A stretch of 12,120 bases of DNA from Cyanobacteria bacterium P01_B01_bin.77 (GCA_039028535.1 JBCCHX010000116.1:1-12120), one strand, 5' to 3'. Counted from the stretch's first letter, positions 2,064-12,120 are shown. Translations and numbers: made by a program. Notes: generated from the sequence alone by a model not told the origin.

Positions 2064-2092
2064 AGCCCTTGTGATTGCACAAGGGCTTTTTA
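2064..2092 (+). terminator. Rho-independent terminator downstream of the AT-rich ORF
   Basis: Perfect 10-bp stem AGCCCTTGTG (2064-2073) / CACAAGGGCT (2078-2087) with loop ATTG, followed by TTTT at 2088-2091. On the opposite strand no comparable T-run follows the stem, so it is oriented for the + strand. Confidence 0.75.
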
Positions 2093-2180
2093 TAAGGCTT
2101 AAAAATCATCAAGACGCCTTGCTGAATCTGGGTTAGGCAGGTGATAACAGGGGGAGATGTTCTTTCATGCTCCCTAAACC

Positions 2181-2606
2181 ATGTCCGATCCTTTAACTGC
2201 AGGTACGATCGCAACCCTGATATTCACAACCGCTGTCGGTAAATTGACCGAAGCGTTGACAGAGGATGCACGAAAGCAGCTAACTCAGAAATTACAGTCT
2301 TTGAAAGAGCTGATCGGCTCCAAGTTTCAAGGCAAGGCTAAAGCTGCATTGGCCAGGGCTGACCGGGGAGATGAAACGGATAAGGATACAGTCACCAAAT
2401 ATTTGGGTATGGCAATGGCTGAAGATCCTGCCTTTGCCCAACAGGTGAGAGCCTTAGCCAACGATATTGAGCAGGTTATCAAGATCGACCAAGTCCAGGG
2501 GCAAAATGTACAGAACGTGTTTGGTGGTGAAGCCAATCAGGTAAACAACCCTCAAGGCCCGGTCATCATGGGCGGTAGTGGCAACACAATTAACATCAAT
2601 ACCTGA
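2181..2606 (+). CDS. Small helical protein with a hydrophobic N-terminal helix and a duplicated G/N/Q-rich C-terminal motif (candidate NLR-associated effector/adaptor)
   Basis: 141-aa ORF starting at ATG 2181. The N-terminus DPLTAGTIATLIFTTAVGKL is a roughly 17-residue apolar stretch. Residues about 20-100 are charged and amphipathic (helix-like). The C-terminal 40 residues are Q/N/G-rich, with two aligned copies NVFGGEANQVN (2514-2546) and VIMGGSGNTIN (2562-2594). Composition matches the downstream NB-ARC gene. It ends at TGA 2604-2606, in frame with the next ORF. Confidence 0.6.
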   Translation: MSDPLTAGTIATLIFTTAVGKLTEALTEDARKQLTQKLQSLKELIGSKFQGKAKAALARADRGDETDKDTVTKYLGMAMAEDPAFAQQVRALANDIEQVIKIDQVQGQNVQNVFGGEANQVNNPQGPVIMGGSGNTININT

Positions 2607-2720
2607 CCAGAGTCGTCGAGTACAGGCTCGACAAGGTCAACCCTGCCCTACAGCAATCCATATCCCAAAACGCTGAATCCAGGGGCACCGTTTCAGGCAC
2701 CACCTCTGCCTCGGCACTAT

Positions 2721-5700
2721 GTGCAGCGGCCTGAGCATTTCGAGGCAGTTAAGGCCAGGCTACTGGATGAGAGCACACCTGGCACCTTAGTGATCAGTGC
2801 TATCTATGGCATGGGGGGTATTGGCAAATCGGTTCTGGCTGCAGCTCTGGTCCAGAATGACGAGATTCAACAACGTTTCCCGGATGGGGTACTGTGGGTG
2901 ACCCTGGGTCAGCAGCCAGACATGCTCTCGATGGTGAACCTGTGGATTCGAGAGTTGGGAGACTATGACTATAATCCCACTACTCTACAGGCGGCATCAT
3001 TACACCTGCGAACGTTGCTAGCCGATAGGAAAGCACTACTGGTTATTGATGATGTGTGGCATCCAGAACATGTAGAGCCCTTTCGCATCGCAGGGGCTGG
3101 GTGCCGTGTGCTGGTGACGACTCGGCAAACCAAGATTGTTGGAGCAACCCGCTACGACCTAGATTTGATGACTCAGCAGCAGTCATTGGAGCTTCTCACC
3201 CGATGCTTACCAACTCCATTATCTGAGGCAGAAAAATCATCTGCTGAGACCTTCGCTAAAGAAGTAGGCTATTTGCCCCTGGCTTTAGAATTAGCTGCGG
3301 CCCAGATTGAGGATGGAGTGACCTGGGACGAGCTGCTAGAGGCCTTTCAATCCGAAATGGCGGATCCCGAAGCGCTGGATATTGATAGTGATGTGGCGTC
3401 CTTAAGCGATGAAACCATTCGGAAACGTCGCAGTTTAGTAGCTTCTTTCAAACTCACACTTAAGCTACTTTCCCCGAAACAATTGGAGCAATTTGCCTGG
3501 TTCGGCATTGTTCCTGAGGATGTCTCTCTAACTCAACAGATGGCGGCCACCTTATGGGGAGTGAAGCCCATAAAGGCAGGCAAGTTGCTGCGAGGGTTCA
3601 AAAATCGGGCGCTGCTGTTACCCCAGGCTCAACGAACTGGTGAGAAACCGACCTATCGCATTCATGACTTGGTGCATGATTTTGCTAAAAATTTGCTAAC
3701 GAGTGAGCAGTATTTAGGGGATTTGTCAGGATTAGGCCTCCCTGTTGAAACAGCCCACTCTCAATTTCTTGAGCGATATCAGGATCAAACAAAAGATGGC
3801 CTATGGCATACCGTTCCAGCAGATGGGTACATCCACAGTCACTTAGTTTGGCATTTTGAGCAATCTGGTCAGCCAGGGTTGATACATCAACTGCTAAAGG
3901 AATCAACATCAGACGGACGAAATGGTTGGTATGAAATTTGCGAACAGTTGGGACAGACAGCCAATTTCGTCACCGATACTGCTCGGGCATGGCAAGCCGC
4001 TGGGAGACTCTATGAACAGAATGTGACTGAGTCGATTGCACTGCAGTGTAGATATGCTCTGATTACAACATCTCTCAATAGCCTGGTTCAAAATCTTCCT
4101 CCTACATTAACTGCAGCACTTGTACAAAAGGGATTATGGCAACCAGCTCAAGGACTAGCCTATGTACGGCAAAGTCCGTATCAGTTTATTAGAGCTGAGG
4201 GTCTTAAAACATTAGTGCCTTATTTACCAGGGGCGTTAATGAAAGAGGCATTAGTAATAGCGCGTTCGATTGAAGGTGAGACTTATCGAGCCTATGCTCT
4301 GTGTGGGGTTGCCGAATATGTGCCCGAGATATTGAAGGAAGCATTAGTGATGGCACGCTCGATTGAAGATGAGACTTATCGGGCTAGAGTTCTGAGTTTA
4401 TTAGCTCCCTATCTACCGGAAGTGTTAGAGGAGGCGTTGTTATTAACGCACTCAATTAAAGATGAGATGGATCGGGCTAGTGTTCTAAGTAGCTTAATCC
4501 CTCATTTACCAGGATCATTGATGCCGGACGCATTGGCAATAGTATCTTCCATTCAGCATGAGTTGAGTCGGGCTAATGCGCTAAGTTGGGTTGCCCCATA
4601 TTTATCAGAATTTTTGATAAGGGATGCATTATCGATAGTTCGCTCGATTCAGCATAAGTCTGAACAGGCTTATGCTCTGAGTTTATTAGCTCCATATTTG
4701 CCAGAGATAGCTAGCGAAGCCTTGAGTATGACACCCTTAATCCAACCTGGATATCTACAGAGTGTTGCTCTAAGTTCATTAGCTCCATATTTGCCAGATT
4801 CACTGACAAAAGAAGCATTAGCAGTAGCGCGCTCGATTCAGCATGAGCGTCCTCGGATCGAAGCATTGCGTTCATTAGCTCCCTATTTGCCGGGCGTGTT
4901 GGAAGAAGCATTGGCAATAGCGCGCTCGATTCCAGATGAGCATTCTCGAGCGGATGCTCTAATGAAATTTGTTCCAGATGTGCCAGAGGTATTGGAGGAA
5001 GTGTTATCAGTAGCGTGCTTGATTGAAGAGGAATCTGAACGGGCCAATATCCTAATTGAAGTAGCTCCATATTTGCCACAAGTGGTGAGAGAGGCGTGGA
5101 TGGTAGCTTGCTCGATTCAGAATGCGCCTGAACGAATCGAAGCCTTGGAAAAATTAGCTGAATATGTGCCAGAACCATTGATGAAAGAGATCTTAGTATT
5201 AGCCAGGTCGATTCAGGATAAGCTTTTCCAAGCTGGTGTATTGATTGAGCTAGTAGAGTATTTGCCGGAAGTAATAAGTGAGGCATTCACAGTAGCACGC
5301 TCAATTCAGGATAATTATTCACGTGCTAAAGCTCTAAGTTGGGTAGCGCAGTATGTGCCAGAAGGGATACATGAAGCCTTGGCAGCAACGCGCTTAATCC
5401 AAAGTGAAAAGTTACGTAATCGTGCTTTAAGCGAGTTAGTGATGTACTTACCAGAAGTAGTAGGTGAGGCCTTAGCGATAGCGCGCTCGATTCAGGACAG
5501 ACTTCATAGGGAAAGCGCTATGAGTTGGTTAATCAAGTACATACCAGCCAAGAGTAGTGAAGCGTTGGAAATAGCGCGTTCGATTCAGGATGAATATTAT
5601 CGGGCCAAGGCCTTAAGTTGGGTAGCCGAGTACATGCCAGAGGTAAGGACAGAGGCTTTGGAAGTAGCCCGCTCGATTCAGAAGAAGTATTTTCGAGCCA

Positions 5701-6296
5701 ATGTTCTGAATAGCATGGCTAAATACATGCCAGAAGTAAGAAGTGAAGCATTGGTGGCAGTACGCGCTATTGAATATAAGAGTCTCCGCATCAAGGCCCT
5801 GAGTGCATTAGCCGAGTATATGCCTGAATTAACAAGTGAGGCCCTGGAGGCAGTATTTTCCATGCAGAGTGGGTATGACCAGGCTGAGGCAATAGTTGAT
5901 TTAGCTCCATATTTGCCGGAATCATTGCTCCCTAAGGCTATAGAGATAACTCGTTCAATTCAGGGTGAATGTTACCAGGCTGAGGCAATAAGAGGGTTAG
6001 CTCCATATTTGCCGGAATTATTGCTACCCAAAATCATAGAAATGGCTCATTCGATTCAGGATGAGTACTATCGGGCCAAAGCTCTGAGTGGATTGGTGCA
6101 CATGCTCAAAACAATTGAAACAGATTTTGATGCTTGGCAAAACCTTGTTCACACCTTGGCGTATCAAGATCGCCAATTCTTCCTCACCAATATTCCCAAA
6201 CTCGCCCCAGCAATCATTTCCCTATCCGGCGGAGGCACAAAGGCTTTAGAATTAGTCGTTGAGGCAATGCAAGACGTTTGTCATCAATGGCCATGA
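2721..6296 (+). CDS. NB-ARC (APAF-1/CED-4/R-protein type) STAND NTPase with a C-terminal array of 21 HEAT/ARM-like helical repeats (bacterial NLR-like protein)
   Basis: NB-ARC motifs present: Walker A GMGGIGKS (nt 2808-2831), Walker B LLVIDDVW (DD at 3048-3053), RVLVTTR, GYLPLALE (GLPL motif, about 3267-3290) and RIHDLVHD (MHD-type, from 3660). A helical linker region follows (YIHSHLVWHFEQSG...), then 21 repeats of consensus ALxxARSIQDExxRAxALSxLAPYLPExLxE, and a unique C-terminal cap ending in QWP. The first canonical start is GTG 2721, only 29 residues before the P-loop. The frame is open upstream back to TGA 2604-2606, so the true N-terminus is uncertain. Confidence 0.9.
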   Translation: MQRPEHFEAVKARLLDESTPGTLVISAIYGMGGIGKSVLAAALVQNDEIQQRFPDGVLWVTLGQQPDMLSMVNLWIRELGDYDYNPTTLQAASLHLRTLLADRKALLVIDDVWHPEHVEPFRIAGAGCRVLVTTRQTKIVGATRYDLDLMTQQQSLELLTRCLPTPLSEAEKSSAETFAKEVGYLPLALELAAAQIEDGVTWDELLEAFQSEMADPEALDIDSDVASLSDETIRKRRSLVASFKLTLKLLSPKQLEQFAWFGIVPEDVSLTQQMAATLWGVKPIKAGKLLRGFKNRALLLPQAQRTGEKPTYRIHDLVHDFAKNLLTSEQYLGDLSGLGLPVETAHSQFLERYQDQTKDGLWHTVPADGYIHSHLVWHFEQSGQPGLIHQLLKESTSDGRNGWYEICEQLGQTANFVTDTARAWQAAGRLYEQNVTESIALQCRYALITTSLNSLVQNLPPTLTAALVQKGLWQPAQGLAYVRQSPYQFIRAEGLKTLVPYLPGALMKEALVIARSIEGETYRAYALCGVAEYVPEILKEALVMARSIEDETYRARVLSLLAPYLPEVLEEALLLTHSIKDEMDRASVLSSLIPHLPGSLMPDALAIVSSIQHELSRANALSWVAPYLSEFLIRDALSIVRSIQHKSEQAYALSLLAPYLPEIASEALSMTPLIQPGYLQSVALSSLAPYLPDSLTKEALAVARSIQHERPRIEALRSLAPYLPGVLEEALAIARSIPDEHSRADALMKFVPDVPEVLEEVLSVACLIEEESERANILIEVAPYLPQVVREAWMVACSIQNAPERIEALEKLAEYVPEPLMKEILVLARSIQDKLFQAGVLIELVEYLPEVISEAFTVARSIQDNYSRAKALSWVAQYVPEGIHEALAATRLIQSEKLRNRALSELVMYLPEVVGEALAIARSIQDRLHRESAMSWLIKYIPAKSSEALEIARSIQDEYYRAKALSWVAEYMPEVRTEALEVARSIQKKYFRANVLNSMAKYMPEVRSEALVAVRAIEYKSLRIKALSALAEYMPELTSEALEAVFSMQSGYDQAEAIVDLAPYLPESLLPKAIEITRSIQGECYQAEAIRGLAPYLPELLLPKIIEMAHSIQDEYYRAKALSGLVHMLKTIETDFDAWQNLVHTLAYQDRQFFLTNIPKLAPAIISLSGGGTKALELVVEAMQDVCHQWP
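4158..6110 (+). repeat. In-frame tandem coding repeats, period 93 or 96 bp, about 21 units (the sensor-repeat array of the NLR)
   Basis: Recurrent DNA blocks include GCGCGCTCGATTCAG (for example near 4828, 4918, 5478 and, with substitutions, 5571 and 5658) and TTAGCTCCATATTTGCC(A/G)GA. The adjacent units at about 5879 and 5976 share CAGGCTGAGGCAATA...TTAGCTCCATATTTGCCGGAA. The units translate to 31-32-aa repeats. Confidence 0.9.
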
Positions 6297-6503
6297 GACA
6301 AGTTTCTACATTGAGAGCATAGCATTCTTGCCACTATCGATTAAATGTCAATTGCTTTGGTTAGCACACTTAAACATAATGAGTCATGCTTGAACTACAA
6401 GCACTGTGGCTGTCAGCAAACGGATAAATGACTGTGTCAGCAGCATGGCCCCATTCAGGGAGTAAGGCTCAACTATAATCCAGACTAAGGATATATTGAG
6501 CCA

Positions 6504-7913
6504 ATGGTTACTACTCTTGCCCAAATCGACGTATGGCGGCAAACATCCAGAGAAAATTCAAAGCTGGAATTCAAGGAAGCAAAGAGAAGCTTTGACAAAA
6601 ATAAGCTCTACCGTTATTGCGTAGCTATTGCCAACGAAGGCGGTGGACACCTTTTACTAGGCATTACAGATTCCCGTCCCCGCACTGTCGTTGGCAGTGC
6701 GGCATTTCCTGACACTGATAGCATTACCGAAAAGCTATTTACAGTTTTGCGCTTTCGAGTGGATGTGGAAGTTGTCAATCACCCCGATGGCAGAGTTGTA
6801 GTTTTCCATATCCCATCTCGCCCCACAGGTACTGCATATAGTTACGACGGAGCCTACCTCATGCGCTCTGGTGAAAACCTGGTACCTATGACCGAGGACC
6901 AGCTCCGCAGAATCTTTGCTGAGGGGCAACCCGACTGGCTTGGTGGGATATCAAGAGCTAATTGCACAGATGAAGACATCGTGCGTCTACTAGATACCCA
7001 AAGCTACTACGATCTTCAAGATCGCACCTATCCGAGTACTCGTACAGAAGTTTTACGCAAGCTAGAGCTAGAGCACCTGATAATCGCCACCACTGGTGGT
7101 TGGAACATAACCCGTATGGGAGCGTTGCTCTTTGCCAAACGCATTGAGGATTTTTCAGATCTGCAACCTAAAGCACCACGTTTCATCGTCTACGAAAACA
7201 ATAACAAGCTCAACACTCGCATGGACATCTTTGGAGGGAAAGGCTATGCCGTTGGGTTTACGGGCTTAGTAGATTTCATCATGGCCCAGGCTCCTCAAAG
7301 TGAAGTCCTCAGCGGAGCACTACGGGAATCAGTCAAGATGTTTCCTGAGGAAGCAGTACGTGAATTAGTAGCAAATGCCCTCATCCATCAAGATTTTGCC
7401 CAGGACGGTCCCTCAGTCAGGATTGAACTCTATTCAGATCGGCTAGAAATTAGTAACCTGGGTCTTCCGCCCATTGATGTGGAACGATTCATCGATGAGG
7501 ACAAGTCCCGTAATGAGCGCCTGGCCGATCTGATGCGTCGTCTCAGAATTTGTGAGCGTAAAGGCAGTGGCTTCGACCGAGTGGTTAATGCGGCTGAAGA
7601 CTATCAGTTACCGGCTCCGGATATCCGTATCGGCTCATTACATACCTCCGTCGTGTTATTTGCCCATAAGGAATTCAAAGAGATGGACCGTGACGAGCGT
7701 ATTCGGGCCACTTATCAGCACTGCTGCCTGAGGTATGTAATGAATGAAAAAATGACCAATAAGTCCCTCAGAAAACGTTTTCAGCTACCCGACAAGAAAA
7801 CGGAACCCGTATCCCGAGCAATCCGTGAAGCCCTCGACTCACAGCTGATCAAACCGGCTGATCCATCAGTGACATCTACTCGCTATCGCAGCTATATCCC
7901 CCAATGGGCATGA
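6504..7913 (+). CDS. AlbA_2 (Schlafen-like, 'divergent AAA') + HATPase_c_4 + C-terminal winged-helix protein; putative nucleic-acid-binding regulator / ATP-binding protein
   Basis: 469-aa ORF with AAGGA 13 nt upstream of ATG 6504. The N-terminus LEFKEA...YCVAIANEGGGHLLLGITD...VVG matches the AlbA_2 signature as I recall it. The central ELVANALIHQDF...IELYSDRLEISNLG...RNERLADLMRRLRICERKGSGFDRV matches the HATPase_c_4 (RecG-like C-terminal) pattern. The C-terminal MTNKSLRKRF...VSRAIREALDSQLIK...YIPQWA looks like a wHTH. Confidence 0.8.
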   Translation: MVTTLAQIDVWRQTSRENSKLEFKEAKRSFDKNKLYRYCVAIANEGGGHLLLGITDSRPRTVVGSAAFPDTDSITEKLFTVLRFRVDVEVVNHPDGRVVVFHIPSRPTGTAYSYDGAYLMRSGENLVPMTEDQLRRIFAEGQPDWLGGISRANCTDEDIVRLLDTQSYYDLQDRTYPSTRTEVLRKLELEHLIIATTGGWNITRMGALLFAKRIEDFSDLQPKAPRFIVYENNNKLNTRMDIFGGKGYAVGFTGLVDFIMAQAPQSEVLSGALRESVKMFPEEAVRELVANALIHQDFAQDGPSVRIELYSDRLEISNLGLPPIDVERFIDEDKSRNERLADLMRRLRICERKGSGFDRVVNAAEDYQLPAPDIRIGSLHTSVVLFAHKEFKEMDRDERIRATYQHCCLRYVMNEKMTNKSLRKRFQLPDKKTEPVSRAIREALDSQLIKPADPSVTSTRYRSYIPQWA

Positions 7914-8100
7914 TGTCTCTTTAGATTTAGGCCATATTTTGAGAGCTATTGTCTCCGGAATCACTGGCATATAAAGGTTTTCTTCTTTAGACGCTAATTC
8001 CTATCGATTGAGTTCTTCTTTAGATTCAGGCCGCTTCTAGAGACCCCATTTCCCTGAAACTATTGATATACAAAGGTTTTCTTCTTTAGACGCTAATTCC
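7914..8100. repeat. Diverged tandem duplication (units about 88 and 99 bp) carrying four copies of (T)TCTTTAGA
   Basis: An exact 29-nt repeat AAAGGTTTTCTTCTTTAGACGCTAATTCC occurs at 7973-8001 and 8072-8100. Each unit also starts with CTTTAGATT(T/C)AGGCC (about 7918 and about 8018). The interiors align at roughly two-thirds identity by eye. Confidence 0.7.
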
Positions 8101-8618
8101 CATTCCATTTGCGCCTTTTCACGATAGAGACGGATACTTTCTGATTCGTCAGTTCAACCAGTAGCAGGTTTCAAAACGCCGCAACCACTCCAGAAAGAAA
8201 GGCGCGAATGCTTAGTAGGGGATTGATTTGGATGGTTACGCAGTGCGTAGAGACTGTAATCGGTAGAGTTGCGATCTCATAGTCAACTGCAGCAGCAGTT
8301 TCTTCAGCTGATCGACTGGCACCCTATATCTACTGACCACTGCATCTACTGGCCACTGCCCTATCTGGGGCTGCTCCTTTCATAGCCGATACAGTGCCAG
8401 GGGTAATATGCGACCCTTACTTCTCATCTATTAGGGTCAAATCGAAAGAAACGCCAGCAGTTGGGGTCGAGTAGAGCAAAGCTATCGATTGGCTAAGAGT
8501 GGTTGAAATTCAAATGCTCAAAATATCATTCGAGGCTTTAGGGTCAAATCCTTCAAGATCAGTGGCTTTCACTTTTGCTGCCATGTCAACGGTGTTTCCA
8601 TGACCAAGTGTAGGTCTG

Positions 8619-8750
8619 AAACCTATATGGTGAAGGACTTCTGGCGATGTGTAGGACTTGAAAAATAGTGTATAGGACTATGTGTAGGGCTAAAACCTAT
8701 ATAGTGAAGGACTTTTAGAGATGTGAAGGACTTTTCTTGTAGACTAGGAT
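8619..8750. repeat. Iteron-like cluster of TG(T/A)(G/A)(A/T)AGGACT motifs, including a 41-nt direct repeat
   Basis: AAACCTATATGGTGAAGGACTTCTGGCGATGTGTAGGACTT (8619-8659) is repeated as AAACCTATATAGTGAAGGACTTTTAGAGATGTGAAGGACTT (8693-8733). Further TAGGACT / TAGGGCT / AGACTAGGA copies lie between and after them, giving 6-7 copies of the AGGACT core spaced 13-21 nt apart. Confidence 0.6.
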
Positions 8751-8863
8751 GGCGATAAAAATCAAAAAAAGAGCAATGCTGAATGGTTGCAGTTTGTCGC
8801 CTCCTATAAAAAATTAACCCCTGAAAGCGCTGACAGGAAAAGCTTTCAATCATATAAGCTTAC

Positions 8864-8908
8864 GCTTTGGGGTAGTAGGGGTCGTGGGTTCAAATCCCGC
8901 CGCTCCGA
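8864..8908 (+). tRNA. 3' fragment of tRNA-Pro(GGG), anticodon loop to discriminator; not a complete gene; probable att-site remnant
   Basis: Anticodon loop TTGGGGT (8867-8873; U33, GGG anticodon, G37). Variable loop GGGTC. T-arm GTGGG-TTCAAAT-CCCGC (8884-8900). Acceptor 3' strand CGCTCCG (8901-8907), implying the C1-G72 pair typical of bacterial tRNA-Pro. Discriminator A at 8908. No CGGAGCG 5' acceptor strand or D-arm exists upstream, and anticodon-stem pairing breaks down 5' of about 8864. Confidence 0.75.
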
Positions 8909-8917
8909 TTTAATTGG

Positions 8918-8940
8918 AACCCGCTCATTGAGCGGGTTTT
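8918..8940 (+). terminator. Rho-independent terminator after the tRNA-Pro fragment
   Basis: 9-bp stem AACCCGCTC (8918-8926) / GAGCGGGTT (8930-8938), loop ATT, running into TTTT (8937-8940). Confidence 0.7.
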
Positions 8941-8995
8941 GTCATATTTATCAAGCCTTTTGAGCCTTGCCTTATGGGGTGGGTTCATCAAAATA

Positions 8996-9044
8996 TTGGG
9001 TCACTTTTGGTCAGTTTGGGTAGCATTTGGGTATGAGTTGGGTA
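8996..9044 (+). promoter_or_regulatory. Helically phased heptamer repeats upstream of the integrase start (candidate arm-type/operator sites)
   Basis: TTGGGTA occurs at 9016-9022, 9027-9033 and 9038-9044, an exact 11-bp period. It is preceded by TTGGGTC (8996-9002) and TTTGGTC (9006-9012) at about 10-bp spacing. The array ends 6 nt before ATG 9051. Confidence 0.5.
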
Positions 9045-9050
9045 TGAAAT

Positions 9051-9374
9051 ATGCCACAAACAACCCGAAAAAAATCGCCCAAAGGCACCGTCTCGGTTGA
9101 GGAATATCAGAGTCGATTGCGGCTCAGGTAGCGGCACCTGGGTAAGCGATACGCCTTATCCATAGGGCTTCCAGACTCTAAGGTCAACCGCCAGGTAGCA
9201 CAGCAAAAGGCGACGATCATTGAGCTGGATATTGCGTCGGGCAACTTTGACCTGACCATGAAAAAGTACAAGCCTCATACCCAAAATAGCGAAGGCCTTG
9301 CTGTGGTGGGCCTTTTCGAGCTTTTTATGGAGTACAAGGCGAAGCGGTTATTGCCCAGAAGTTTGGATAAGTAG
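9051..9374 (+). pseudogene. Tyrosine recombinase (phage-type integrase) N-terminal arm-binding region; in-frame TAG and truncated by IS insertion
   Basis: Translation is MPQTTRKKSPKGTVSVEEYQSRLRLR*RHLGKRYALSIGLPDSKVNRQVAQQKATIIELDIASGNFDLTMKKYKPH...LPRSLDK. TAG 9129-9131 sits where integrases of this type have Trp (LRLRW). The pattern matches the N-terminal (DUF3596-like) domain of integrases as I recall it. The reading frame runs into the IS inverted repeat at 9367, and no catalytic domain follows anywhere in the window. Confidence 0.7.
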
Positions 9375-10393
9375 GGTTTGCTGTTGAAGTCCAGCCTTGA
9401 TACTCAGCAAGGGTTTCATACTATTGAGATAGGCTTAAGTGCACTGAAAAGTAGCTAAAATGCTCAAAACCCTTGCACCTATTGCGGGTCATGCACCGAC
9501 ACTCTTCCCCTAGCCAGCTATCGTTCCAAGACTTTTATTTGCCGTGCCGAAACCTAGGTCACATTGACCAGTTAATCGAAGCAGGCGCAACGCTTGCAGC
9601 GCTGAATTCACAGGAGTATAAGACTCTGTTGGTAATTCATGAGGTGTATCGCCAACAACAGCATATGTATCAACATAAGCAGCGACGGATTGATGACCGC
9701 CTTGTGAGTCTTTCACAGCCCCATGTGCGCCCCATTGTTCGCGGTAAAGCTGGGACTCCAGTGGAATTTGGAGCCAAATTCGCCATTAGTTGTGTGGCCG
9801 GGTATGTGTTCCTCGACCATCTCAGTTGGGATAACTTCAATGAATCTGAGGACTTGATACCTCAGATAGAACGGTTTCGAACCCGCACCGGCCACTATCC
9901 TGCCTCCGTGCATGCCGACCAGATTTATCGGACACGCGAGAACTTGAGATGGTGCAAACGGCATAGCATCCGTCTGAGTGGTCCGCCCTTAGGCCGACCG
10001 TCGCTCGATGAAACCCAACAAGCCCTCCTTCGACAACGAGCCCGAGACGATGAGAGCGTTCGTGTTGCCGTCGAAGATAAGTTTGGTCGGGCCAAACGAC
10101 GATTTGGCCTCGGACGGGTGATGGCCAAACTTGCCCAAACCGTCGAAACCATGATTGCCATCACCTGTTTAGTGATCAACTTGGAGAAACGGCTACGCCG
10201 TTTTATTGGCTTGGTGTTGATGGTATTGATTCGGTTACTACGGAGCTATCGGGCAACTATACGTCCCTTTGTGGCAAGAGTAAGCGATAACTGGTTTAAA
10301 AACGTCGACTATCAGCAAGGCTATACTGACCACGCCTGCGCTGCCGGATAACCCCTGAGATTTTTACTGAGTTTTTCAGCAAGCCCTACTTAT
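9367..10393 (+). mobile_element. IS5-family insertion sequence, internally deleted (non-autonomous) derivative, 1027 bp
   Basis: Terminal inverted repeats are ATAAGTAGGGTTTGCTG (9367-9383) and CAGCAAGCCCTACTTAT (10377-10393), matching at 16 of 17 positions. They enclose a transposase ORF that lacks its middle part. No clear target-site duplication is visible, and the two flanks are unrelated (integrase on one side, IS1 fragment on the other). Confidence 0.7.
9491..10351 (+). CDS. IS5-family DDE transposase, internally deleted and probably inactive
   Basis: The likely native start is ATG 9491 (MHRHSSPSQLSFQDFYLP, the usual N-terminus of this transposase type); the ORF track opens at TTG 9473. 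After FYLP the sequence jumps to the C-terminal two-thirds: SQPHVRPIVRGKAGTPVEFGAK...NESEDL...HADQIYRTRENLRWCKRHSIRLSGPPLGRP...RVAVEDKFGRAKRRFGLGRVMAKL...NLEK. The DUF772-like region and the first catalytic Asp region appear to be missing. The product is 286 aa, against roughly 450-500 aa expected for full-length relatives (from memory). Confidence 0.65.
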   Translation: MHRHSSPSQLSFQDFYLPCRNLGHIDQLIEAGATLAALNSQEYKTLLVIHEVYRQQQHMYQHKQRRIDDRLVSLSQPHVRPIVRGKAGTPVEFGAKFAISCVAGYVFLDHLSWDNFNESEDLIPQIERFRTRTGHYPASVHADQIYRTRENLRWCKRHSIRLSGPPLGRPSLDETQQALLRQRARDDESVRVAVEDKFGRAKRRFGLGRVMAKLAQTVETMIAITCLVINLEKRLRRFIGLVLMVLIRLLRSYRATIRPFVARVSDNWFKNVDYQQGYTDHACAAG

Positions 10394-10564
10394 ATGACGA
10401 GAGTAGAAGGCGAGAACACACGGTTACGGCATTACCTAGCTCGTTTGCATCGCAAGACGTTGTGTTATTCGAAGTCGCTCGAGATATTGAAGCATGCCTT
10501 GCGCTTGTTGATTCACTATCTCAAGTTTGGGGAGGTGCCGCTGCCGCCTAGATTCATCCCTTGA
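10394..10564 (+). pseudogene. IS1-family transposase (InsB-like) C-terminal fragment
   Basis: Translation is (MTR)VEGENTRLRHYLARLHRKTLCYSKSLEILKHALRLLIHYLKFGEVPLPPRFIP*. This matches the E. coli IS1 InsB C-terminus pattern [27 protein letters not shown]. Only about 55 residues are present, and the fragment starts directly at the right end of the IS5-like element. Confidence 0.65.
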
Positions 10565-10668
10565 TTCAGCAACGCTAACAGGTTCATGTGACTTTTTAAC
10601 ACAGCATGGAGAAGCTCTGATCAAGCAATGGTAATTTCAGCTATGGAAGACGGGGTGTAATTAGCACT

Positions 10669-12120
10669 ATGACGAGTACAATCCAAACTTCACCAAAGTT
10701 AGCCCACTGCTCTGTAGAGCAGTGGAAAAGGTTGCTACAGTCTATAGAAAGTACCCTGCTGGTAATGCCAACAGGGAGTGGTAAAACCTGGACAGCACGG
10801 CAGTCTTTGAAGCAGTGGGCCGAGCAAGGATATTTGGGAGTTTATCTTTCTCCCTTAAAGGCGTTGGCTCAGGAGCAGGTTAATGTCTTAAGACGAGATT
10901 TTCCTCATCTGAAGGTTGGGCTCTTTACTGGAGAAGTAACTGAGAACCCAAGAGATGTTCAAATTCTGGTGGCAACCCATGAGAAGTTTGATGTTTATTT
11001 AAAGCGCCCTAAGCTGTATCTCGATTGGCTGGCACGGATTGGAGTAGTGGTGGTGGATGAGATTCATCTGCTAGCCGATCCACAGCGGGGCGGACGCTTG
11101 GAGTCCCTGCTTGTGCGGCTGCAAGAGGTGAATCCTTTTGTGCAAGTTTTAGGTCTCTCGGCCACACTTACGAATGCAGATGAGCTATCTAGTTGGTTAA
11201 AGGGAAGAGTATTACGGGGTGGAACTCGTCCTGTTTCTTTAGAAACGGAGTTTCTTCGATATAAAACTGAGGAACAAAAAATAGATTGTTTACTTTCTCG
11301 GTTGGCTTGCGGGCGTGAAGAAGGTGGTCAAACGCTGATCTTTGTTGCCACACGCCGTAGGGCAGAAACCTTAGAGACCTTCCTTAGCCAACAAGGATAT
11401 AGGGTTAAGCATCATCATTCAGGTCTGTGGCCCCAAGAACGATTAGAGGTTGAAGGGGCATTTCGAGCTGGACAATTAGAAGTCTTGGTGGCAACTCCCA
11501 CCCTAGAGATGGGGGTCAACCTTCCGGCACGTCGGGTGATTCTTTATGACACGTATCAGTTTAATGGAGAAGGGTTTGAACCGCTCTCCGTCCAATCATT
11601 TTTACAGCGTATTGGTCGAGCGGGGCGACCAGGACTTGATACTAAGGGAGAGGCGTTTGTATTGTTACCGGCCTGGGCGGATGATGGTCCTTATCAGCGA
11701 GGAATTCCAGAAAAGGTTTTTTCTCGTCTTGGTCGCTCCCAGATATTAAGTCAGTTCTTTTTAGATTTAATTGAAGCAGGATTGGCCCAGAGCACTGAGG
11801 ATTTGAAGTGGATTTACCAACGGACACTCCATGCTCACCAACAGTCTGAAGTAGATCTAGAGGGGACCTTAGCACTGCTGCTAGATGAGGGATTCATTGC
11901 TAAGAAAGAAGATGGTCTGCGGGTGACCTATTTGGGCCGGATTACGGCTCGATTATCTTTGAGCCCAATGGATCTGGTGCTAAGTCGTAAGCTGATTGAC
12001 CTGGATGCGAAAACGCCCTATGACCTGATATTGGTTGTATCGCTGTGGTCTAGTCTATCGCCTCGCTTATGGTGCGCGTTAGAAGATATTGAGCTGATGC
12101 AGGAAGCTTTAGACGGGATG
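10669..12120 (+). CDS. Superfamily-2 DExH helicase, Ski2/Hel308-like (COG1204-type); 3'-partial, continues beyond the window
   Basis: I translated 484 codons from ATG 10669 to the window end with no stop codon. This ORF is not in the supplied track, presumably because it has no stop in the window. Helicase motifs present: I MPTGSGKT (10765-10788), Ia LSPLKALA, II VVVDEIH (DEIH at 11056-11067), III LSATLTN, IV LIFVATRR, V VATPTLEMGVNLPA, and VI QRIGRAGRPG (11605-11634). A TGA at 10618-10620 closes the frame upstream. Confidence 0.85.
   Translation, partial: MTSTIQTSPKLAHCSVEQWKRLLQSIESTLLVMPTGSGKTWTARQSLKQWAEQGYLGVYLSPLKALAQEQVNVLRRDFPHLKVGLFTGEVTENPRDVQILVATHEKFDVYLKRPKLYLDWLARIGVVVVDEIHLLADPQRGGRLESLLVRLQEVNPFVQVLGLSATLTNADELSSWLKGRVLRGGTRPVSLETEFLRYKTEEQKIDCLLSRLACGREEGGQTLIFVATRRRAETLETFLSQQGYRVKHHHSGLWPQERLEVEGAFRAGQLEVLVATPTLEMGVNLPARRVILYDTYQFNGEGFEPLSVQSFLQRIGRAGRPGLDTKGEAFVLLPAWADDGPYQRGIPEKVFSRLGRSQILSQFFLDLIEAGLAQSTEDLKWIYQRTLHAHQQSEVDLEGTLALLLDEGFIAKKEDGLRVTYLGRITARLSLSPMDLVLSRKLIDLDAKTPYDLILVVSLWSSLSPRLWCALEDIELMQEALDGM

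Follow-up and report, generated by a model that had tools for sequence, protein, structure and literature searches.

A cyanobacterial NLR-type conflict locus that is probably expressed as one translational unit through programmed stop-codon readthrough

Bell-type proteins have been described as 120-140 aa long, with an acidic position 2-3, an N-terminal helix that is apolar, a helical bundle and, at the C-terminus, a G/N/Q/V/I motif (Dyrka et al. 2020, bioRxiv 10.1101/2020.01.06.895854). Besides the Bell/BASS-NLR pairs, our comparison set included E. coli Bab/Agp (bioRxiv 10.1101/2024.11.07.622273) and fungal HET-S/NWD2. The Avs/bNACHT group of STAND/NLR defence proteins combines an N-terminal signalling or effector module, a STAND NTPase and a repeat sensor. 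Viral readthrough signals include those of phage Qbeta A1 (UGA) and MuLV gag-pol (UAG, an 8-nt spacer and a pseudoknot), and the 'type II' signals of alphaviruses and plant viruses consist of UGA-C followed by a 3' stem-loop.

In the present study, we analysed a 12,120-nt stretch of DNA from Cyanobacteria bacterium P01_B01_bin.77, referred to as the window. Comparison with related loci suggested that positions 2181-6296 probably make up a single translational unit in a cyanobacterial conflict system of the NLR type, with expression via programmed stop-codon readthrough. In the window, ORF-A and ORF-B lie in the same frame, apart only by TGA 2604-2606 and 38 open codons, and this single TGA is followed by 1229 open codons. 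The features are as follows:

2064..2095, plus strand: terminator-like hairpin with a T-run, the end of the upstream unit (terminator scan; upstream alignment of 11 loci)
2108..2166, plus strand: conserved block, a putative 5' leader or promoter, ATCAAG..CTTGCTGAATCTGGG..ATAACAGGG..AGAT.TTCTTTC (41 invariant columns in 11 loci)
2181..6296, plus strand: whole putative translational unit (frame continuity; predicted readthrough product 141 + 1 + 1229 = 1371 aa)
2181..2606, plus strand: ORF-A, the short product (ATG start, 141 aa; homologues and AlphaFold2 model)
2493..2603, plus strand: amyloid-signalling-like motif (near-invariant columns; same motif in sister NLRs and a TIR fusion)
2604..2640, plus strand: candidate recoding cassette of stop, spacer and hairpin (pairing, covariation, covariance model, conservation)
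2607..2720, plus strand: 38-codon Pro/Ser-rich linker, annotated as intergenic (open frame; purifying selection at the protein level)
2721..6296, plus strand: ORF-B, the NB-ARC repeat protein (GTG start, 1191 aa)
2721..3710, plus strand: NB-ARC NTPase module with winged helix (Pfam match; P-loop GMGGIGKS at 2808-2831)
4203..6110, plus strand: about 20-21 tandem 31-aa helix-hairpin repeats (aa 495-1130; consensus RAxALSxLAPYLPExLxxEALxxARSIQDE)

The hairpin at 2064..2095, which kept its position and sequence in related loci, marked the 5' boundary of the cassette. The leader block was common to loci of three kinds, those with a Bell-like N-module, those with only the motif at the N-terminus and those with a CHAT partner. 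The sequence-only reading had described a 'two-part' system of two compositionally matched ORFs. Both ORFs were found as claimed, and their GC contents matched (44-53%, compared with 27-35% in the upstream ORF). The shared frame had been missed, and the system would consist of two parts only if translation ended at the TGA and restarted at GTG 2721.

In ORF-A, Asp3 preceded an apolar N-terminal helix at aa 5-20; the helical bundle covered aa 7-106 and the G/N/Q motif aa 105-141, in agreement with the three-part layout previously proposed. In the AlphaFold2 model, the bundle had a pLDDT of 70-88 and the tail (aa 106-141) was disordered. The protein belonged to a conserved family with 31 database homologues, nearly all of 139-145 aa. 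Conservation peaked in the motif, in which G107, Q108, N109, Q111, N112, F114, G115, G116, Q120, N122, G132 and I137 were nearly invariant. Read by eye, the motif consisted of two pseudo-repeats, VFGGEANQVNN and IMGGSGNTINI, on either side of a Pro/Gly loop. ORF-A resembled the small partner of Bell/BASS-NLR pairs in these descriptive features: a length of ~140 aa, an apolar N-terminal helix, an acidic position 2-3, a helical bundle and a two-pseudo-repeat, G/N/Q/V/I-rich C-terminal motif. No match to HeLo, MLKL, Bell or Bab was obtained by Pfam, PDB sequence search or Foldseek; hhalign gave only 79.6%, which does not establish homology to Bell or HeLo.

ORF-B matched Pfam NB-ARC PF00931 over aa 5-213 (E 3.7e-26), as had been anticipated, with weak winged-helix matches at aa 261-322. 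The P-loop occupied aa 30-37, and the 29 residues said to precede it were correct if translation begins at GTG 2721. The claimed 21 repeats also held, with a period of 31 aa and about 20-21 copies. AlphaFold2 confidently folded aa 490-870 into an alpha-solenoid built of helix pairs (pLDDT 89.7); this solenoid resembled TPR/HEAT solenoids in a generic way only and is presumed to be the sensor. The 31-aa repeat matched no named family in Pfam, and no Avs or NLR model of PADLOC matched.

The junction between the two ORFs carried a candidate recoding signal. TGA 2604-2606 was followed by C at +4 (2607) and, after an 8-nt spacer (2607-2614), by an inner hairpin with stems GTCGAG (2615-2620) and CTCGAC (2627-2632) around a loop at 2621-2626; TGACC (2604-2608) and GGTCA (2635-2639) could form an outer stem. 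A 5-6 bp hairpin beginning 8 nt after the stop was common to about 40 related cyanobacterial loci. The stop was TGA in 32/34 loci and TAG in 2/34, with C at +4 in 33/34, and the same hairpin also followed TAG (L025, L027 and the L001 mini-ORF) and TAA (L045). Compensatory changes occurred at three inner-stem pairs (CG/UA/UG, CG/GC/UA/UG and GC/AU), and the covariation score was matched by 0/500 shuffles. Paired cells made up 86% of the hairpin alignment versus at most 44% in slid controls, and RNAalifold independently recovered the same stem. Identity across loci was 70% over the 42 nt from the stop versus 34-40% in the flanks, and a covariance model gave 43 matches in 408 kb on both strands, all at these junctions. 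G-U pairs were frequent in both stems (21/35 at one outer-stem pair), which suggests that the element acts as sense-strand RNA. The loop sequence varied among subfamilies, the window hairpin was short (-14.8 kcal/mol, z = -2.1), and no SECIS or other match was found in Rfam at E up to 1. Since no U-run follows the stem, the hairpin is not an intrinsic terminator.

It has been reported that readthrough is commonest at UGA, that +4C increases readthrough in yeast, and that bacteria have UGA-C at the prfB recoding site (PMC5289835). The arrangement at the junction was similar to viral programmed readthrough in its candidate leaky stop, mostly UGA with +4 C, in the structured RNA ~8 nt downstream and in the conserved in-frame extension. 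A fixed ratio between two products, a plentiful short one and a scarce long one that share an N-terminal module, would be a further likeness. Unlike the viral cases, this was a family of cellular bacterial genes on chromosomes and plasmids, known here from sequence comparison; the hairpin was short and simple, with no pseudoknot or long stem; the competitor would be bacterial RF2 rather than eRF1; and the cassette was modular, with several N-modules and several downstream partners. Sec and Pyl apart, we know of no cellular gene of bacteria in which a hairpin stimulates readthrough.

The linker was then considered at the codon level. Between the window and L023, 11 synonymous and 4 non-synonymous codon differences were counted, and three of the four non-synonymous ones fell in the hairpin loop; 3' of the hairpin, the ratio was 11 to 1. 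Linker changes were mostly synonymous among the closest relatives of the window. The 36 distinct intervals from the stop to the NTPase motif had 9 different lengths, every one a multiple of three, and stops interrupted 0/36 of them in frame 0, 30/36 in frame +1 and 32/36 in frame +2. Judged from these comparisons, the linker evolves like coding sequence. No ATG occurred in any of the 36 linkers, 18 of which also lacked GTG and TTG up to and including the conserved N-terminal motif of the NTPase, and L027 had no start codon anywhere 5' of the P-loop. In roughly half of the loci, the window with its GTG 2721 among them, GTG or TTG lay near the motif, so that independent initiation is possible there; GTG 2721 encodes the Val of the conserved Y-V-x-R-P motif and is not a conserved start codon. 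Gene callers and RefSeq placed the NLR start 7 codons 5' of the P-loop or even 3' of it. The sequence-only reading had treated the NLR as an independent effector-less gene. Its position in frame behind one stop, the lack of a conserved start codon and the coding-like evolution of the linker do not support this. The N-terminal domain that the receptor appears to lack would most likely be supplied by readthrough of the ORF-A stop.

The conserved neighbourhood that had been predicted was observed across genomes, in that every ORF-A homologue had a co-directional STAND NTPase behind it. In about 40 loci from at least five cyanobacterial orders, the stop of the ORF-A homologue was followed 45-69 codons on by a STAND P-loop in the same frame, and none of the related loci had a P-loop in any other frame. 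These loci share ancestry, and their counts are not numbers of independent events. The stop kept its position although ORF-A identity dropped to 33-45%, and about 30 loci had intact downstream ORFs of 400-1229 codons. Several loci had truncated NLRs, indicating that such genes also decay. An in-frame TAG was seen within the NB-ARC domain of L050, and transposases and recombinases lay close by in several loci. The same MAG contained a paralogue with the identical in-frame layout.

The junction was also modular. The same cassette occurred after a different N-module of 146 aa from a second family of small helical proteins (L047, L049), after a 37-aa motif-only mini-ORF (L001 4786-4898) and 5' of a CHAT domain (L003). 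Direct fusions had neither stop nor hairpin (P0185, P0183/P0186/P0190, P0208, the CHAT fusion in L007 and the TIR fusion P0028). P0185 was the closest relative of the window NLR, and the G/N/Q motif was found at the N-terminus of the sister NLR P0185/L050 and in the L001 mini-ORF. In Calothrix NIES-2098, a homologue of the 146-aa module formed a canonical pair: the two genes overlapped by 4 nt, and the NLR repeated the motif at its N-terminus. A word-seeded search of 5.8 billion proteins returned none that crossed the junction with a sense codon in place of the stop. In other loci, the N-module of ORF-A was joined directly to TIR or CHAT domains. Because of these fusions, the module may have an assembly or adaptor role rather than that of a killer; its presence on both TIR and CHAT effectors is as expected of a homotypic adaptor and follows the logic of effector-associated domains (Kaur et al. 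2020/2021, PMC7159879, PMC8195603). Stop codons and readthrough are not mentioned in these papers. The locus shared the domain order of the Avs/bNACHT proteins, except that its N-module meets the NTPase only across a stop codon.

Other explanations of the junction were weighed against readthrough. Two separate genes, with the NLR starting at GTG 2721 (GTG, TTG or a non-canonical codon in relatives) and the hairpin acting on mRNA stability, processing or attenuation to set the ORF-A:NLR ratio in an operon, would agree with the RefSeq and gene-caller annotation and with the GTG or TTG codons found in the window and in roughly half of the loci, and hairpins with such a role in differential expression are common between cistrons. 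We regard this arrangement as unlikely: the candidate starts shift in position and are usually merely the Val codon of an FVGR or YVxRP motif; half of the linkers offer no start before the motif and none offers ATG; two genes require no frame relation, yet frame 0 was open in 36/36 intervals compared with 6/36 and 4/36 for the other frames; the 11 to 1 synonymous excess lies 5' of GTG 2721; the hairpin is no intrinsic terminator; and an NLR started at GTG would be without the motif that sister NLRs bear at their own N-terminus. If ribosomes terminated and, held by the hairpin, re-initiated at the stop or right beside it, a separate linker-NLR protein without the N-module would result. Such re-initiation would account equally for the adjacency, the open frame, the coding-type selection on the linker and the missing starts. 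We nevertheless consider it highly improbable, as we know of no bacterial mechanism by which translation restarts at CUA, CUG or CCA if the initiator tRNA does not pair, the product would again miss the motif of the sister NLRs, and a UGA with C after it and a hairpin at a spacing of 8 nt is how readthrough signals are classically built.

Very little weight was given to three further possibilities. The NLR part could be a pseudogene left by a nonsense mutation in a Bell-motif-NLR fusion, and the fast turnover of NLR genes in these lineages (Pereira and Lupas preprint), the truncated relatives and the TAG in L050 fit such decay. The chance of this appears slim given the constant stop position in more than 40 divergent loci, the intact downstream ORFs in about 30, the strong selection on stop context and hairpin, and the failure of the protein search to find a sense-codon junction. 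It is similarly doubtful in the extreme that a SECIS-like hairpin makes the UGA code for selenocysteine or that a dedicated suppressor tRNA decodes it; UGA predominates and the distance to the downstream hairpin, about 11 nt, resembles that in bacterial SECIS, but the same hairpin accompanies TAG and TAA, its loop differs across subfamilies, Rfam gave no SECIS match, and to our knowledge the Sec-decoding trait is not established in cyanobacteria. The 42 nt could instead act in DNA as an attC-like recombination or cassette-exchange site that shuffles N-modules between NLR genes, in line with the joining of different N-modules to different partners, the conservation far above the flanks and the nearby transposases and recombinases. 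However, the frequent G-U pairs form only in sense-strand RNA, no integrase was consistently linked, and frame conservation, missing starts and the synonymous bias of the linker would be left unexplained, making this role a very remote prospect as the explanation. Such a DNA-exchange role and readthrough are not mutually exclusive.

Programmed readthrough is thus the reading we favour, and its comparative support consists of the conserved frame, the covarying hairpin, the absent starts, the selection on the linker, the direct fusions and the cassette with different N-modules. Under readthrough, most ribosomes would stop at UGA 2604-2606 and release the 141-aa Bell-like helical domain with its two-pseudo-repeat G/N/Q motif. 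A minority would pass the UGA, favoured by the weak UGA-C context and the hairpin 8 nt 3', with a near-cognate tRNA, probably tRNA-Trp, decoding it; we infer the event itself, its rate and the inserted amino acid from the sequence comparisons. These ribosomes would traverse the 38-codon linker into the NB-ARC and ~20 repeats, producing a rare fusion of ~1371 aa with the same N-module. A single motif copy would then supply both partners of a Bell/BASS-NLR amyloid-signalling pair, with the readthrough rate setting their ratio. By analogy with such pairs, a ligand on the repeats would cause the long form to oligomerise and cluster its N-terminal motifs, which would serve as a template on which the abundant short form polymerises. 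Cell death or abortive infection might follow via the helical domain of the short form, or via TIR/CHAT effectors that bear the same module elsewhere. Amyloid templating, membrane attack and a role in defence are proposed here by analogy.

The kinship with Bell/BASS-NLR pairs that the sequence-only reading had suggested was retained in part. The descriptive features of ORF-A, the collinear NB-ARC repeat protein directly downstream, the motif in sister NLRs, the confinement to filamentous or multicellular cyanobacteria, and the sister loci holding canonical pairs (Calothrix, L051) and motif-NLR fusions (P0185) all agreed with it. A second motif copy at the N-terminus of the NLR, the feature that defines a BASS pair, did not appear in the window. 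In contrast to those pairs, the NLR encodes no motif copy of its own and would obtain one by readthrough of the effector gene, the frames are continuous and split only by a conserved stop and hairpin, and the NLR has no conserved start codon. We found no prior description in the literature of a readthrough-based version. If this interpretation is true, one message would give rise to many small death-domain-like proteins and a few copies fused to a receptor, and the locus would represent a one-gene version of the Bell/BASS-NLR amyloid-signalling pair.

The sequence-only reading had described a small ORF followed by an NB-ARC protein with a large repeat region, and both ORFs were found in the window, a 12.1-kb contig of the MAG 'Cyanobacteria bacterium P01_B01_bin.77'. 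ORF-A (AAF572_28285) occupied 2181..2606 (141 aa), and ORF-B occupied 2721..6296 with a GTG start (1191 aa). Residues 5-213 of ORF-B matched NB-ARC (Pfam PF00931, E 3.7e-26), which placed the protein among the NB-ARC/STAND NTPases. The P-loop (Walker A) GMGGIGKS was located at aa 30-37, so that only 29 residues separated it from the GTG, as had been described. Weak winged-helix matches were observed at aa 261-322 (Pfam), and regions of ORF-B matched the NCBIfam AfsR and FxSxx NTPase models with E values of 1e-20 to 1e-26, far under the whole-protein cut-offs. The repeat region consisted of about 20 tandem copies of 31 aa and was modelled by AlphaFold2 as a confident alpha-solenoid (pLDDT 89.7), whose likeness to TPR/HEAT was generic only; no named repeat family matched these repeats. 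In PADLOC, neither ORF-A nor the NLR (ORF-B) matched a family at E up to 0.01, including Avs, bNACHT and other anti-phage STAND systems.

Bell proteins have been reported as small alpha-helical proteins of 120-140 aa whose N-terminal helix is hydrophobic and whose residue 2 or 3 is acidic, and the BASS motif as a C-terminal segment of about 25 aa that is rich in G, N, Q, V and I and sometimes forms two pseudo-repeats around a Pro-rich loop (Dyrka 2020, bioRxiv 10.1101/2020.01.06.895854). ORF-A showed the size, helix and acidic residue of the former, beginning with MSDPLTAGTIATLIFTTAVG and carrying Asp3, and its sequence ended in a G/N/Q/V/I motif like that of the latter. The motif spanned residues 105-141, QGQNVQNVFGGEANQVNN-PQGP-VIMGGSGNTININT, and was the best-conserved block of the family to which ORF-A belonged (139-145 aa). 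In the AlphaFold2 model, six helices over aa 7-106 formed a helical bundle and the G/N/Q tail was disordered, in agreement with the helical body and tail noted from the sequence. hhalign linked the ORF-A family to a second family of N-modules (the small helical proteins that precede the NLRs), one that includes a canonical Calothrix pair, over 84 columns (probability 79.6%, E 1.5e-5); any homology of the N-domain to the Bell domain itself is putative.

The fungal HeLo-type likeness that had also been raised was not borne out. No family was found for ORF-A in Pfam, NCBIfam, PADLOC or PHROGs, and neither Pfam, the PDB search nor Foldseek gave a HeLo, MLKL, Bell or Bab match. The Pfam scan of the N-domain returned no family up to its cut-off (Rx_N, E 0.66, was sub-cut-off), and the PDB profile search returned nothing for this domain, its sole matches arising through TIR columns that the TIR fusion protein P0028 had contributed. 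Foldseek of the ORF-A model, whose pLDDT was only a moderate 69, placed FAT-type and generic four-helix bundles on top of the PDB matches at E 0.5 or worse; HeLo, MLKL and Bab were absent among the best 50. A pore-forming N-domain of the HeLo, HELL, MLKL-4HB or Rx_N type was supported neither by profile (Pfam, PDB) nor by fold (Foldseek).

Translation of 2001-2900 revealed that ORF-A and ORF-B lay in one frame, separated only by TGA 2604-2606 and an open, Pro/Ser-rich stretch of 38 codons. Taken alone, the shared frame of the window could be chance, which by our own estimate was very improbable; related loci were therefore fetched for comparison. The ORF-A alignment was used to scan collections of genomes and metagenomes, which yielded 46 loci belonging to Leptolyngbyaceae, Nostoc, Anabaena, Hassallia, Plectonema, Kastovskya, Aerosakkonema, Coleofasciculaceae, Chroococcales and others. 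Nearly all of them had an ORF-A homologue ended by a stop, past which the same frame stayed open over hundreds of codons and ran into a STAND P-loop. Every locus that reached the P-loop had it in frame, 45-69 codons past the stop, and never in either other frame.

We defined the interval from the stop to the conserved NTPase N-terminal motif ([FW][VQ]GR or [YF][VI]xRP), which gave 36 distinct intervals. These had nine lengths of 19-37 codons, every one a multiple of three. None of the 36 contained a stop in frame 0, compared with 30/36 in frame +1 and 32/36 in frame +2. ATG was absent from all 36 intervals, and in half of them (18/36) ATG, GTG and TTG were all absent at or before the NTPase motif. 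Where candidate NLR starts were present, they mostly coincided with the Val codon of this motif, such as GTG 2721 within YVQRP of the window, and locus L027 had no candidate start codon anywhere before the P-loop. For a paralogue within the same MAG, gene callers put the NLR start 7 codons ahead of the P-loop, and the GenBank annotation of plasmid pHT582-1 puts it after the P-loop. Two loci from Nostoc or Chroococcales (L011 and L015) carried, about 50 codons past the stop, a 7-aa insertion MSTTGYA directly before the P-loop (QVAMSTTGYAYAAIAGMGG), which was absent from close relatives of both.

The linker was compared between the window and its two closest relatives, L022 and L023 (ORF-A identity 85% and 82%). 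Over the 38 codons, the window and L023 differed by 11 synonymous and 4 non-synonymous changes; the hairpin loop described below held 3/4 of the latter, and 3' of the hairpin the synonymous to non-synonymous ratio was 11 to 1. These substitutions indicate that the linker evolves like coding sequence. The junction showed both a downstream ORF in the same frame and coding-type selection across it, as expected of readthrough.

The stop was embedded in a conserved RNA element, of which the window contained two paired segments:

2615-2632: inner hairpin, stem GTCGAG (2615-2620), loop (2621-2626) and stem CTCGAC (2627-2632), beginning exactly 8 nt past the stop
2604-2639: outer stem, TGACC (2604-2608) with GGTCA (2635-2639), in which the stop itself is paired to the downstream segment

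In viral readthrough signals, the classic layout is a structured element 8 nt downstream of the stop. The junction consensus was T-TGA-CTA-CAG-TCG-CCY-GAA-CGG-GAA-CGG-GCA-AAG-TTA-AAT, in which third codon positions were as conserved as first and second ones. Across 34 loci, identity was 70% in the 42 nt from the stop versus 34-40% in the flanks. The stop was TGA in 32/34 loci and TAG in 2/34, a TAA variant occurred in L045, and the +4 base was C in 33/34. The sole +4 exception among the scored loci was a paralogue in the same MAG (L053, 953-960), where TGA was followed by A (TGA ACA GAG TCG). UGA has been reported as the leakiest stop; in yeast a +4C makes readthrough more frequent, and in bacteria the prfB recoding site is UGA-C (PMC5289835).

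In a 35-sequence alignment, 86% of the cells were paired, versus at most 44% with slid partners. Three inner-stem pairs covaried, alternating between CG, UA, GC and UG, with a covariation score reached by 0/500 shuffles, and RNAalifold recovered the inner stem independently. G-U pairs were common in the stems, which points to RNA structure on the sense strand. An intrinsic terminator was rejected because no U-run followed the hairpin. A covariance model built from the alignment gave 43 matches in 408 kb on both strands, all at these junctions. The element had both features of a readthrough signal, a leaky stop context and a conserved RNA structure that lies close on its 3' side at a constant spacing.

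The cassette (stop, 8-nt spacer and hairpin) was found between different modules. Its downstream partners were NB-ARC-TPR in most loci, NB-ARC with 31-aa repeats as in the window, and CHAT in L003. An extra covariance-model match in L001 (4786-4898) was a 37-aa mini-ORF consisting of the G/N/Q motif only, which ended in TAG followed by the hairpin and lay in frame with a second NB-ARC-TPR gene (4974-6671), 4 kb downstream of a full Bell-like-motif-TGA-NLR unit with a near-identical NLR. The blastn search of plasmids with the element yielded six records, including Acaryochloris marina MBIC11017 pREB4 and pREB5 and Nostoc sp. C057. In two of those examined, a different 146-aa N-module preceded the same TGA, hairpin and in-frame NB-ARC. 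This module shared 39% identity with the Calothrix NIES-2098 protein of a canonical Dyrka-type pair, whose genes overlap by 4 nt and whose motif, ENWQGINIKGG.N.I.NP, stands at the effector C-terminus and the NLR N-terminus alike.

Stop-less direct fusions also occurred, joining the motif to NLRs (P0185, P0183, P0186, P0190 and P0208) or the N-module to CHAT (L007) and TIR (P0028, P0034 and P0058), and the hairpin-encoded peptide was absent from all of them. The profile used for the exhaustive HMM search (322 positions) was built from the ORF-A alignment and still contained the P0028 TIR domain, and its approximately 30,000 matches were therefore TIR proteins; the sole informative ones were P0034 and P0058, further fusions of the N-module to TIR. 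No protein spanning a sense-codon version of the junction was found with a profile in which W took the place of the stop; direct motif-NLR fusions were returned instead. Where the hairpin occurred, the stop was essentially always there as well. The fusions of the N-module to TIR and CHAT suggest that it may serve as an assembly module rather than a killer.

P0185 was the closest relative of the NLR of the window and had the same 5' leader. In L050, the locus of this direct motif-NLR relative, an in-frame TAG (then C) lay within the NB-ARC domain at 749-751, in place of the Met codon of GQQPDMLSMVNLW, and the frame ran 875 codons past it; a pseudogene, an assembly error or a second leaky stop could each lie behind this. 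In L040 (1158-1290), the TAA of a hairpin-less ORF-A relative was followed by a 40-aa ORF that repeated the C-terminal motif of the effector (GFQTQ..G.NVF.GENYV) and then ended in a stop, which may be a remnant of a canonical two-motif pair.

The remaining features of the window were as follows:

46-1938, + strand: 630-aa ORF of very low GC (27-35%, versus 45-53% for the rest of the window)
2064-2166, upstream of the ORF-A ATG: terminator-like hairpin and leader of about 60 nt, ATCAAG..CTTGCTGAATCTGGG..ATAACAGGG..AGAT.TTCTT
6504-7913, + strand: 469-aa protein with Schlafen AlbA_2 and HATPase_c_4 domains
9473-10351, + strand: IS-type DDE transposase (DDE_Tnp_1_2, E 6e-31)

The 630-aa ORF matched nothing in Pfam, PADLOC or PHROGs and only sub-threshold in NCBIfam (E 0.0047, 17 bits against a cut-off of 180), and it looks like foreign DNA adjoining the NLR unit. 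The terminator-like hairpin and leader were conserved in 11 loci with differing N-termini and partners, and could serve these loci as a common promoter, operator or leader RNA. The 469-aa protein matched PHROG 12156 ('DNA helicase', E 3.6e-37) and, weakly, Argonaute-associated PNTD proteins in PADLOC; it may be another defence-island gene. Long ORFs were missing from the stretches around the transposase (7900-9470 and 10350-12120), which may be decayed sequence.

On the sequence comparisons, programmed stop-codon readthrough would be the simplest account of the ORF-A/NLR junction. The short product would be the Bell-like domain with its motif, and the rare long product would be the same N-module fused to the NLR, with Trp the residue expected at the stop (X in the predicted junction ...NININT-X-PESSSTGSTR). 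One motif copy would thereby supply both partners of a Bell/BASS-NLR amyloid-signalling pair, at a high executioner-to-sensor ratio set by readthrough. Such pairs are defined by a second motif copy at the NLR N-terminus, but in the window no copy was present in the NLR ORF (from GTG 2721) or in the 38-codon linker; the motif would therefore reach the NLR through readthrough only. N-terminal motif-NLR genes were present in related loci, namely P0185 (L050), the L001 mini-ORF and the Calothrix pair. The observations of the sequence-only reading stand, with the ORFs, NB-ARC domain and repeats all confirmed. Its assignment to the Bell/BASS family is reasonable, since readthrough would recreate both partners from one motif, but its description of a two-part system with an effector-less NLR is not supported, given the single frame, the lack of a conserved NLR start and the coding-like linker.

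Each of five rival accounts covers some of the data. Four of them, namely independent initiation of the NLR (with a hairpin that affects mRNA stability), a pseudogene, selenocysteine insertion and a DNA recombination site, fail on at least one of five observations: the frame conservation, absent starts, synonymous bias, TAG/TAA variants or G-U pairs. Selenocysteine, the pseudogene and an attC-like DNA site were rejected. Selenocysteine insertion (SECIS) strictly requires UGA and a SelB-binding hairpin directly behind it, but the same hairpin occurred with TAG and TAA; moreover, its loop was not conserved, and Rfam gave no match around the junction. Re-initiation at the codon next to the stop accounts for all five observations, but its product would be without the motif that sister NLRs carry, and we know of no bacterial translation restart at CUA, CUG or CCA.

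Beyond constitutive readthrough, the stop-hairpin cassette might be a regulated input to immunity, with termination efficiency itself sensed by the immune system, which we consider unlikely. The sensor NLR would then be made only when ribosomes ignore UGA, UAG or UAA, so that anything which makes termination less faithful during infection would push up the amount of Bell-motif-NLR fusion, arming or triggering the system. Candidate triggers would be phage-encoded suppressor tRNAs, stop-codon-recoding phages, RF2 interference and general translation stress.

To our knowledge, no hairpin-assisted stop-codon readthrough signals are known outside phages, viruses, eukaryotes and the special Sec and Pyl systems. 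Our literature search, which covered bacterial NLR and STAND genes as well as cyanobacteria, turned up no relevant report of readthrough or in-frame stops. Stop codons and readthrough are not mentioned in Dyrka 2020, Kaur 2020 and 2021 (PMC7159879, PMC8195603) or a 2026 STAND survey, and a preprint by Pereira and Lupas treats in-frame stops only as beta-propeller disruptions. We rate the locus as a putative NLR amyloid-signalling system whose expression mechanism would be new for bacteria. The cassette is present in cultured strains (Acaryochloris marina MBIC11017 pREB4/pREB5, with AM1_RS33645/AM1_RS33650 and the predicted junction ...ITINKTI-X-LESPDQDR, and Nostoc sp. C057, with FD724_RS33560/33555) and is directly testable there, and the covariance model can be used for re-annotating cyanobacterial genomes, where RefSeq lists such NLRs as two pieces, a hypothetical protein plus a truncated NB-ARC or TPR protein. 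If readthrough occurs, the cassette would give cellular bacterial genes a readthrough signal that is conserved, modular and assisted by a hairpin, and it would explain why many cyanobacterial NLRs appear effector-less and start-less in annotation. The sensor-to-executioner ratio of an amyloid/death-fold pair would then be set from one mRNA, with one motif and two products.
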